A stretch of 64,000 nucleotides of DNA, from NCBI GenBank assembly GCA_963812605.1, contig CAWEWF010000014.1, positions 672,001 to 736,000 on the forward strand. Reading direction: 5' to 3'. Origin of the DNA: an uncultured Verrucomicrobiae bacterium (GTDB lineage: Bacteria; Verrucomicrobiota; Verrucomicrobiia; Palsa-1439). A program made the translations under genes and the position numbers. Below are positions 28,186 through 29,439 of the stretch, piece by piece (within the stretch, counting starts at the first letter, position 1; every line of letters starts with the position of its first letter). Under the pieces are notes generated by a model. That model was not told the DNA's origin. It ran no database searches and was given only the letters and a program-made list of their open reading frames with translations.

Positions 28186-28208
28186 CGGCCACGACGGAGC
28201 GTGGCCCT
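28186..28208 (-). repeat. REP at the 5' side of the RAYT, interrupted by IS110
   Basis: CGGCCACGACGGAGCGTGGCCCT; the expected continuation CCG is found at 29412-29414, after the IS. Confidence 0.85.
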
Positions 28209-28224
28209 TGTATCTAGAATTTTT

Positions 28225-28450
28225 GGTACTCTCTGGCTTGGTTTCCCACCGGTGTGGGAGCGACAGGATGGCCCTTGGGGGCATGCCCCCCAAGGGCGCG
28301 CGGAAGTGATCGTCGTGGCCCTCGGTTCGGTTCAGACCTGTCCGTTTGGAGCTGGATCCATCCGCGTTGCCTGTCGGTACGCTCGAACAGTTGCCAGAGC
28401 GGCGGTCGCGCCCATCCGCGCCACCACCAGCTCGCATTGCAAGGAGGAGT
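28225..28450 (+). ncRNA. IS110 bridge RNA (target-binding and donor-binding loops); ends approximate
   Basis: Left target guide CGTGGCCCT 28314-28322, right target guide TTTGGAG 28345-28351, left donor guide ACAGTTGC 28387-28394, right donor guide TGCAAG 28438-28443, each in a stem-closed internal loop. Confidence 0.82.
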
Positions 28451-28456
28451 CTAACC

Positions 28457-29398
28457 ATGTTGCCATCGATCGTCTACGTCGGAATGGATGTCGCCAAACT
28501 CACCCTGGATCTGCACGCCGCCAGCGGATCCCGCGCGCAGTTCCGTCAGTTTCCCAACCACCCTCAGGGCCACCGCGCCTTGGTGCGTTGGCTGCAAGCT
28601 CTGGGATCCGTGCACGTCATCGGCGAAGCCACAGGCGGCTATGAACGCGCCGTCGTGGCCGCCCTGCACGCGGCCGGTGTAGTGGTTTCGGTAGTCAACG
28701 CGCGTCACGTGCGCGACTTCGCCCGCGCCACCGGTCGGCTGGCCAAGACTGACCAACTGGATGCCGCCGTGCTGGCGGCTTACGGCGCCGCCGTACGCCC
28801 GGCCGGCACCGCCGCGTTGAGCGCCGCCCAGAGTCAACTGGCGGAGTTGGTCACCCGTCGCCAACAAGTCCTGGCGCTGCGCGTGGCCGAGCACAACCGC
28901 TTGGAGCATCTCACCCACCCCGACGCCCGCCGGCAGATCCAGCGCCACCTCAGCCAACTGGATCGACACCTGGAACAGCTCGCCGCGTGGATCGCCGCCT
29001 TGGTCCAAGCCGAGCCCGCGCTGGCGCAGAAAGTCGCCCGACTCTGTTCGGTGGTCGGCGTGGGACGCCTGACGGCCGTCGTGCTGTTGGCGCTGCTGCC
29101 GGAATTGGGCACGCTGAATCGGCGCCAGGCCGCGGCGCTGGCGGGTGTGGCTCCCTTCAATCGCGACAGTGGTCCGCATCGGGGACGCCGACAAATCGGC
29201 GGAGGACGGCCCGCCGCCCGGCGGGCCTTGTACATGTCGGCTCTGGTGGCGGCCTTTCGCCACCCGCAATTGCAGCCCTTCTATCAACGCTTGGTGGCCA
29301 AGGGCAAGGCCCCCAAAGTCGCCCCGGTCGCCGTCATGCGCAAACTCATCATCTTACTCAATCGCCTGCTCCAAGAACCTACTTTCCAACCCTTATGA
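28457..29398 (+). CDS. IS110-family DEDD recombinase/transposase
   Basis: GMDVAK, EATGGYE, AKTDQLDA (DEDD); GVAPFNRDSG (catalytic Ser); RRALYMSA, VAVMRKL; AGGAGG RBS. Confidence 0.96.
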   Translation: MLPSIVYVGMDVAKLTLDLHAASGSRAQFRQFPNHPQGHRALVRWLQALGSVHVIGEATGGYERAVVAALHAAGVVVSVVNARHVRDFARATGRLAKTDQLDAAVLAAYGAAVRPAGTAALSAAQSQLAELVTRRQQVLALRVAEHNRLEHLTHPDARRQIQRHLSQLDRHLEQLAAWIAALVQAEPALAQKVARLCSVVGVGRLTAVVLLALLPELGTLNRRQAAALAGVAPFNRDSGPHRGRRQIGGGRPAARRALYMSALVAAFRHPQLQPFYQRLVAKGKAPKVAPVAVMRKLIILLNRLLQEPTFQPL

Positions 29399-29439
29399 AA
29401 AGACAGTTGCTCCGAAGGACAAAACGACACACGACCACT

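Follow-up and report, generated by a model that had tools for sequence, protein, structure and literature searches.

What leads an insertion sequence (IS) to one particular half of one particular palindrome, and could the choice be written in the DNA of the element itself? The question is raised by positions 28209-29411 (plus strand) of a 64,000-nt stretch of contig CAWEWF010000014.1, from an uncultured Verrucomicrobiae bacterium; this whole stretch is called the window below. The 1203-bp IS found there interrupts a repeat resembling the repetitive extragenic palindromes (REPs), and a preliminary description of the DNA proposed that an RNA from its left end is programmed for that repeat. The site specificity of the element, the covariation between its guide words and its flanks, and a covarying RNA fold agree with this proposal at the level of sequence. 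We conclude that 28209-29411 is very probably a recently active IS110-group element that moves by bridge RNA-guided recombination of the IS621 type.

The element, its site and its guide words

The boundaries of the element are common to all copies in the genome. Its left end (28209-28456) consists of 248 nt of non-coding DNA and is followed, on the plus strand, by a 942-nt open reading frame (ORF) encoding a recombinase of 313 aa (28457-29398) and by a short right end of 13 nt (29399-29411, plus strand), which contains the left donor ACAGTTG (29403-29409) and the second copy of a CT core (29410-29411). Because a 248-nt left end is combined with a 13-nt right end, the element was assigned to the IS110 group and not to the IS1111 group.

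Upstream, the flank reads GGCCACG-ACGGAG-CGTGGCC-CT up to the element start. This is the left half of a disrupted palindrome (28186-28208, plus strand) with arms GGCCACG and CGTGGCC; the second arm is the left target (28200-28206) and the CT that follows is the first core copy (28207-28208). Downstream lies the right target, CCGAAGG (29412-29418, plus strand), the remainder of the disrupted palindrome unit. When 28186-28208 was joined computationally to 29412-29414, the resulting 26-mer was identical to the reverse complement of 27635-27660, an intact REP-like palindrome that reads CGTGGCC-CT-CCG on the minus strand and represents an empty target site. The claim that excision of 28209-29411 restores the inverse of this repeat was thus confirmed, and the target CGTGGCC-CT-CCGAA and circular donor ACAGTTG-CT-TGTAT that were deduced along with it are correct in sequence.

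The recombinase is plainly an IS110 enzyme, as had been proposed. Pfam searches gave DEDD_Tnp_IS110 (PF01548, 1.7e-24) and Transposase_20 (PF02371, 4.6e-15), corresponding to a RuvC-like DEDD domain and a Tnp domain, and a phmmer search against solved structures matched residues 5-300 to the IS621 recombinase (8wt6, E 3.9e-39) and also found the ISCro4 recombinase (9t56, E 1.6e-38). The preliminary description further called the protein compact, which did not hold up: a length of 313 aa is unremarkable because the IS621 recombinase, at 326 aa, is just 13 residues longer. IS621 itself is ~1.3 kb in length. The motifs GxD, E-A-T-G, K-T-D-x-x-D-A and S-G align with those of 8wt6 and 9t56, and all five predicted catalytic residues are conserved, with D11, E57, D99, D102 and S238 (followed by G239) equivalent to D11, E60, D102, D105 and S241 (followed by G242) of IS621. 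In IS621, the five aligned residues are essential (PMC11208160, PMC11208158).

A search of the genome (15 contigs, 4.17 Mb) recovered five copies of the element with ~99-100% identity, four full-length and one truncated at 726 nt. The left flank ...ACGACGGAGCGTGGCC-CT is identical at all five, and CC opens the right flank of every full copy (CCGAA, CCAGA, CCAAC and CCAAG), in agreement with the expectation that every copy sits in CGTGGCC-CT-CC; the CT core is found at both junctions in all copies. Variation among the copies is confined to 11 alignment columns and recent spread is therefore indicated. Most of these differences are homopolymer indels, whose predominance suggests long-read assembly noise. 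The 313-aa frame is intact, with all catalytic residues, in three of the five copies. The truncated copy (C4:364702-365426) ends after 726 nt and then gives way to unrelated sequence.

Four guide words could account for this specificity, and each was found once in the 248-nt left end, where the preliminary description had placed it (all on the plus strand). The left target guide CGTGGCCCT (28314-28322) matches the left target plus core, and the right target guide TTTGGAG (28345-28351) is complementary to the core plus right target; the left donor guide ACAGTTGC (28387-28395) matches the right end of the element, and the right donor guide (28435-28443) includes TGCAAG at 28438, complementary to CT+TGTAT. 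From genome-wide word frequencies, the counts expected per 248 nt are, in the same order, 0.002, 0.016, 0.004 and 0.05. The left end was also shuffled 200,000 times (mononucleotide shuffling); the 9-mer appeared in 656 of the shuffled sequences, the 8-mer in 518, and both together in one.

The left target guide matches 9/9 positions at all five genome copies, and the right target guide pairs at 7/7 positions (Watson-Crick or G.U) at three of four copies and at 6/7 at the other. In reverse complement, the right target guide reads CTCCAAA, and the window copy pairs with the guide through one G.U. The better fit is to CT-CCAAA, the commoner variant of the repeat: of 15 empty CGTGGCCCTCC sites, 12 continue with A. 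As for the right donor guide, TGCAAG does pair with CTTGTA through one G.T, as had been noted, but a longer, discontiguous pairing is more likely, in which ATTGCAAG would pair with the seven donor bases CTTGTAT around one bulged base. The choice of this bulged arrangement was guided by the discontiguous pairing in IS621.

Guide-flank covariation and the left-end fold

If the words are guides, related elements that sit in other sequences should carry other words. Eighty loci were recovered by scanning species-representative genomes. The nearest relatives (59-74% protein identity) are multi-copy elements in metagenome-assembled genomes (MAGs) of Verrucomicrobiae; in these close relatives the left end can be aligned and the right end ACAGTTGCT is conserved, being complete in 25 of the 26 relative loci listed, with L023 interrupted by a contig end. 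The distant relatives (36-51% identity) belong to Gemmatimonadota, Chloroflexota, proteobacteria and others.

Guides were compared with flanks at 30 loci comprising six target-loop types, with full pairing defined as Watson-Crick or G.U. In the element studied here, the left guide and left flank both read CGTGGCC-CT, and the reverse complement of the right guide, CT-CCAAA, corresponds to right flanks of the form CT-CC(A/G)(A/G)(A/C/G). The loci L009, L010 and L014 combine a left guide TCCAGCC-CT with a left flank TCCAGCC-CT, and CT-ACAAA is both their right guide in reverse complement and their right flank; no left junction was found for L014, so that its guide match is on the right flank only. 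For L015-L033, the left guide AGTCGCC-CT faces a flank that is mostly AGCCGCC-CT (one U.G), and the right guide (reverse complement CT-ACCAACG) faces a flank that is mostly CT-ACCAACG. Within L030 and L031, the left guide is TCCCGCC-CT and the left flank TCGCGCC-CT, with CT-ACAAA as the reverse complement of the right guide and CT-ACTAC and CT-ACAAT as right flanks.

A left junction could be recognised at 28 of the loci compared. Pairing over 9 nt is complete at 19 of these; there is one mismatch at five, there are two mismatches at two, and three or more at L011 and L012. On the right side, where a flank was available for 26 loci, full pairing over 7 nt is seen in 21, one mismatch in three and two mismatches in two. 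The Watson-Crick fraction at the 12 non-core positions was 0.85 with cognate and 0.56 with non-cognate guides, a gap kept modest by the invariance of left-guide positions 5-7 in the set.

These comparisons also bear on a quite different origin for the words, namely that they are leftover homology from captured fragments of repeats and element ends, the site being recognised by protein-DNA contacts alone. Such capture is suggested by CGTGGCCCTC, a 10-nt copy of the repeat within the left end, and REPs do recombine and spread. However, relatives in unrelated flanks carry different words that match those flanks, in the sense orientation on the left and antisense on the right; the right-side words, moreover, are reverse complements and not copies, which captured homology cannot explain. 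In addition, the internal loops that contain the words are enclosed by helices that covary (see below), and recombination by IS621 requires RNA in vitro. We therefore regard leftover homology as an extremely improbable explanation and interpret the words as guides of a bridge RNA.

A palindrome arm also appears to be the target in a distant host. An element family with 44% identity to the present one (L063-L070; six copies, with left junctions near 1290-1300) occurs in a gammaproteobacterial MAG; there, each copy follows the 3' arm of another palindrome, GCGCC-TGAA-GGCGC TC/CT, and the first-loop word, GCGCUCCU, matches.

The structure of the left end was examined as an RNAalifold consensus of 11 distinct sequences. 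From the 5' side (plus strand throughout), the consensus contains a stem-loop at 28270-28297 (helix 1, 12 bp, compensatory changes in 2/12 pairs, 97.7% of cells paired), a target-binding loop module at 28300-28365 with an 11-bp outer stem (28300-28311 with 28355-28365) and an inner hairpin (28323-28344), and a donor-binding loop module at 28381-28450 with a closing stem, (G)CUC with GAG(U), and an inner stem-loop (28397-28433). The closing stem of the donor loop is invariant and its register uncertain. In both modules the left guide occupies the 5' side of the internal loop and the right guide the 3' side. An extra hairpin is located 5' of the conserved stem-loop. Five RNAalifold pairs inside the loops (columns 54-55/84-85 and 128-130/170-172) were removed from the tested structure because they are likely to be artefacts of guide self-complementarity.

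The resulting fold has 42 pairs, with 97.6% of alignment cells paired, compared with 37-52% when the partners are slid by 1-3 columns. Compensatory changes occur in 10 of the 42 pairs, including two each in helices 2 and 3 and four in helix 5, and the covariation score was reached by none of 500 shuffles. Helices 2 and 5, both with compensatory changes, are the stems CGCGGA..GATC/GATC..TCCGCG and GAGC/GCTC named in the preliminary description. When 55 more distant loci were searched with a covariance model of the left-end RNA, 17 matches were obtained (E up to 1), all of them on the plus strand and upstream of the recombinase gene. The order of parts, i.e., a 5' stem-loop, then the target loop, then the donor loop, with the core in each pairing, bears out the proposed IS621-type layout; the comparison was made with published descriptions of IS621.

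Candidate handshake bases were found in both loops (plus strand), at 28352-28353 in the target loop and 28444-28445 in the donor loop. C28352 can pair with G7 of the donor, not with C7 of the target, and G28444 can pair with C7 of the target, not with G7 of the donor; all four positions are invariant in the relatives.

Mobility, translation and the target repeat

By extension from IS621, the element would excise as a circle in which right end (RE), CT and left end (LE) are joined as RE-CT-LE. A promoter may be formed across the RE-LE junction, with a 17-nt spacer between TTGCTT and TGG-TACTCT. Its candidate -35 consists of TTGCT (29407-29411) plus T (28209) and exists only across the circle junction, and its candidate extended -10, TGG TACTCT, lies at 28224-28232 (plus strand). 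All relatives end in TTGCT; in all four left-end types, TG (left-end positions 16-17) and TA...T (19-24) are kept in register and positions 7-15 vary. In the integrated element, the flank would put GCC in place of the TTG of the candidate -35, and a promoter/terminator scan of that form gave no promoter-like site and a single 'terminator', the REP hairpin. Another possible junction promoter (ATGAAA, 17 nt, TAGAAT; 9/12 consensus matches) was rejected, its -10 not being kept in relatives.

The junction promoter would give a transcript of ~200 nt from near 28239. Each loop would then be bound by recombinase dimers, and base pairing would join the target loop to both repeat strands and the donor loop to the circle junction. 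S238 and the DEDD site would cut after CT, and strand exchange would follow, helped by the handshake bases.

The donor loop may have a further part to play. The Shine-Dalgarno sequence GGAGGAG (28443-28449) lies inside its 3' strand and closing stem, with the ATG 8 nt on, and takes in the core of the right donor guide and the candidate handshake bases; 11/11 verrucomicrobial sequences are identical over the 19 nt that precede the ATG. It is conceivable, if rather unlikely, that the bridge RNA doubles as the leader of the recombinase mRNA, so that recombinase bound to the donor loop blocks translation in a negative feedback; if true, this would be a built-in link between guide loading and enzyme dosage. 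No description of a ribosome-binding-site overlap or of such feedback was found in the bridge RNA papers searched. Taken to its limit, the same overlap and the same invariant stretch could mean that the left-end structure acts chiefly in cis, as an mRNA leader controlling translation or stability of the recombinase, with the guide-like words secondary. This would leave the guide-flank covariation unexplained, however, and the overlap is not general because, in distant relatives, 25-62 nt separate the end of the second loop from the start codon. A leader role is, moreover, compatible with a bridge RNA rather than an alternative to it, and we find it very unlikely as the main function of the left end.

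Several observations weigh against bridge RNA-guided movement of this element. Guide positions 5-9 (GCC-CT) are constant among the close relatives, and the left-side covariation therefore rests on four positions. The left flanks of L011 and L012 mismatch the left guide at 3-4 of 7 positions, with right flanks that match; these two loci (the left junction of L011 is at L011:1401-1413) may represent, in nature, the 'half-match' insertions that IS621 has been reported to make in vitro. The left donor guide matches at 8/9 positions, its ninth base being C vs T in the core. Neither helix 4 (the donor closing stem) nor the two handshake positions vary, and covariation therefore lends them no support; for the stem, invariance means that it is unsupported either way. 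Folded as a single sequence, 28209-28460 is no better than shuffles (z = -1.67, not significant); the structure is supported because of covariation, not single-sequence folding. Rfam 15, searched with 27500-29600 at E up to 10, gave chance-level matches and no bridge RNA family. The favoured junction promoter matches 6/12 consensus positions, with the TG present, and is outscored by ATGAAA/TAGAAT with 9/12. Finally, the reading frame of one full copy (C4:299879) is broken by frameshifts; the window copy has 5 G at 28272-28276, within the 5' hairpin, and is one base short there; and four soil-metagenome contig sets, from a list of sequencing runs none of which is RNA, contained no circle or empty-site joint, contigs breaking at the element ends.

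The last three of these points, together with the truncated 726-nt copy, would be expected if the window copy, or the whole set in this genome, were a dead relic of a real family that is now immobile. The short G-run is shared with the C8 copy, but 6 G are found in C10:232950, C4:299879 and C4:364702, in all relatives and in two soil contigs, and the missing G of the window copy may be an assembly error, as may the other homopolymer indels. The three intact frames and the near identity of the copies likewise argue against a relic, as does a soil contig (run X1, record 3, at window 28204-28233) whose left flank is absent from the assembly. On this evidence we consider immobility clearly unlikely, and recent activity by bridge RNA-guided recombination remains the preferred reading. 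The flank word of the X1 contig could form seven Watson-Crick and two wobble pairs with the left target guide; this single contig, with 30 nt on the element, may mark a further insertion site in the population.

The target repeat itself forms a small family. In the genome, 14 palindromes fit the tight pattern, 27635-27660 among them, and one more is degenerate. CT follows all 14; ten are empty (CT-CC) and four are occupied by the IS, and the truncated fifth copy is located in the degenerate palindrome. A count of 14 is far below the >100 copies per genome that are usual for REPs (PMC2817692). Many of the palindromes are followed by a conserved CCAnATTAGGACACTAC-like stretch, and a second palindrome, GGACGCG...CGCGTCC, precedes several; the places concerned are C1:396932, C2:146425, C4:98530, C6:92171, C10:188059, C14:338525 and, for the C8 and C4 copies, the right flanks. 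A longer composite repeat thus seems to contain the target.

Between the two palindromes of the window, which form an inverted pair, lies a gene resembling REP-associated tyrosine transposases (RAYT-like; Y1 HUH transposase), at 27678-28192 on the minus strand in three frames. With a Y1_Tnp ORF of the same genome (C1:509353) as tblastn query, 27678-28192 was matched in two frames (E 6e-8). A Pfam search of the three RAYT-like ORF fragments gave no match, and a PF01797 search of the genome found seven places, none of them within the window. The two apparent frameshifts in the gene may be assembly indels. The other RAYT-like ORFs examined in the genome are not flanked by the target palindrome. 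The IS sits in one of the two palindromes that flank this RAYT-like gene, which is presumed to spread them.

Comparison with known bridge RNA systems

IS621 of Escherichia coli is the reference for this mechanism, with a bridge recombinase and a 177-nt bridge RNA that folds, in the left end, into a 5' stem-loop and two internal-loop stem-loops (PMC11208160, PMC11208158). In IS621-type RNAs, the 5' sides of the loops pair with the bottom strand over 8-9 nt; pairing of the 3' sides is with the top strand and spans 4-7 nt, or more in some orthologues; the core takes part in all four pairings and the right donor pairing is discontiguous. Under the handshake rule, a guide base can pair at position 7 with the non-cognate DNA but not with the cognate DNA. 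The present element has in common with IS621 a recombinase of the RuvC-DEDD, coiled-coil and Tnp-Ser type, a CT core, an RNA encoded by a long left end, a left guide of 9 nt with the core included, insertion into REP sequences and, from a reading of the sequence, a candidate handshake complementarity at position 7.

It differs from IS621 in its guide words and target (CGTGGCC-CT-CCAAA), and in a right target guide of at least 7 nt here, and up to 9 nt in the L015 family, compared with 4 nt in IS621. The extra hairpin 5' of the conserved stem-loop and a donor loop that abuts and overlaps the ribosome-binding site are further differences, as are the protein of 313 vs 326 aa and the host, which appears to be a soil verrucomicrobial lineage. 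Verrucomicrobia are not mentioned in the bridge RNA papers searched, although supplements may list them.

A preference for REPs is not peculiar to this element, since IS621 (Choi 2003) and other IS110 members have long been known to target them. The closest parallel is with ISPpu10 and ISPpu9 of Pseudomonas putida (bioRxiv 10.64898/2026.03.19.712850; PMC12288879), in which a conserved 5' sequence of the REP is complementary to the left target, which is likewise the 3' arm of a hairpin before the CT core; for ISPpu10 and 268 homologues, that arm belongs to a REP hairpin (bioRxiv 10.64898/2026.03.19.712850). Here, too, hairpin arms are involved (GGCCACG and CGTGGCC), CT is found at both junctions and the element is multi-copy in one genome. 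The repeat sequence, the host phylum and the size of the repeat family, which is small here (14 plus one degenerate), set the two cases apart. The ISCro4 recombinase (9t56) is a second solved relative that aligns over the same residues, compared here as protein sequence only. Elements of the IS1111 group share the DEDD recombinase and an RNA guide with target- and donor-binding parts, named seekRNA, but there the RNA is located in the right end, which is the long one, and subterminal inverted repeats of 7-17 bp are present.

Bridge RNAs have been predicted for 85.7% of the IS110-group elements in ISfinder. Because bridge RNAs are common in the group, and because REP targeting and the hairpin-arm geometry have been published, the novelty of the element is limited, and it leaves the understanding of the mechanism unchanged. 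It is a clear natural example of the bridge RNA mechanism described in 2024, not a new type of system, and an independent example from outside Pseudomonas and Escherichia in which the left target is the 3' arm of a REP hairpin. Its relatives form a natural series of retargeted guides and a possible panel of orthologues for bridge recombinase engineering, with a 313-aa protein, a 9-nt left guide and a 7-9-nt right guide.

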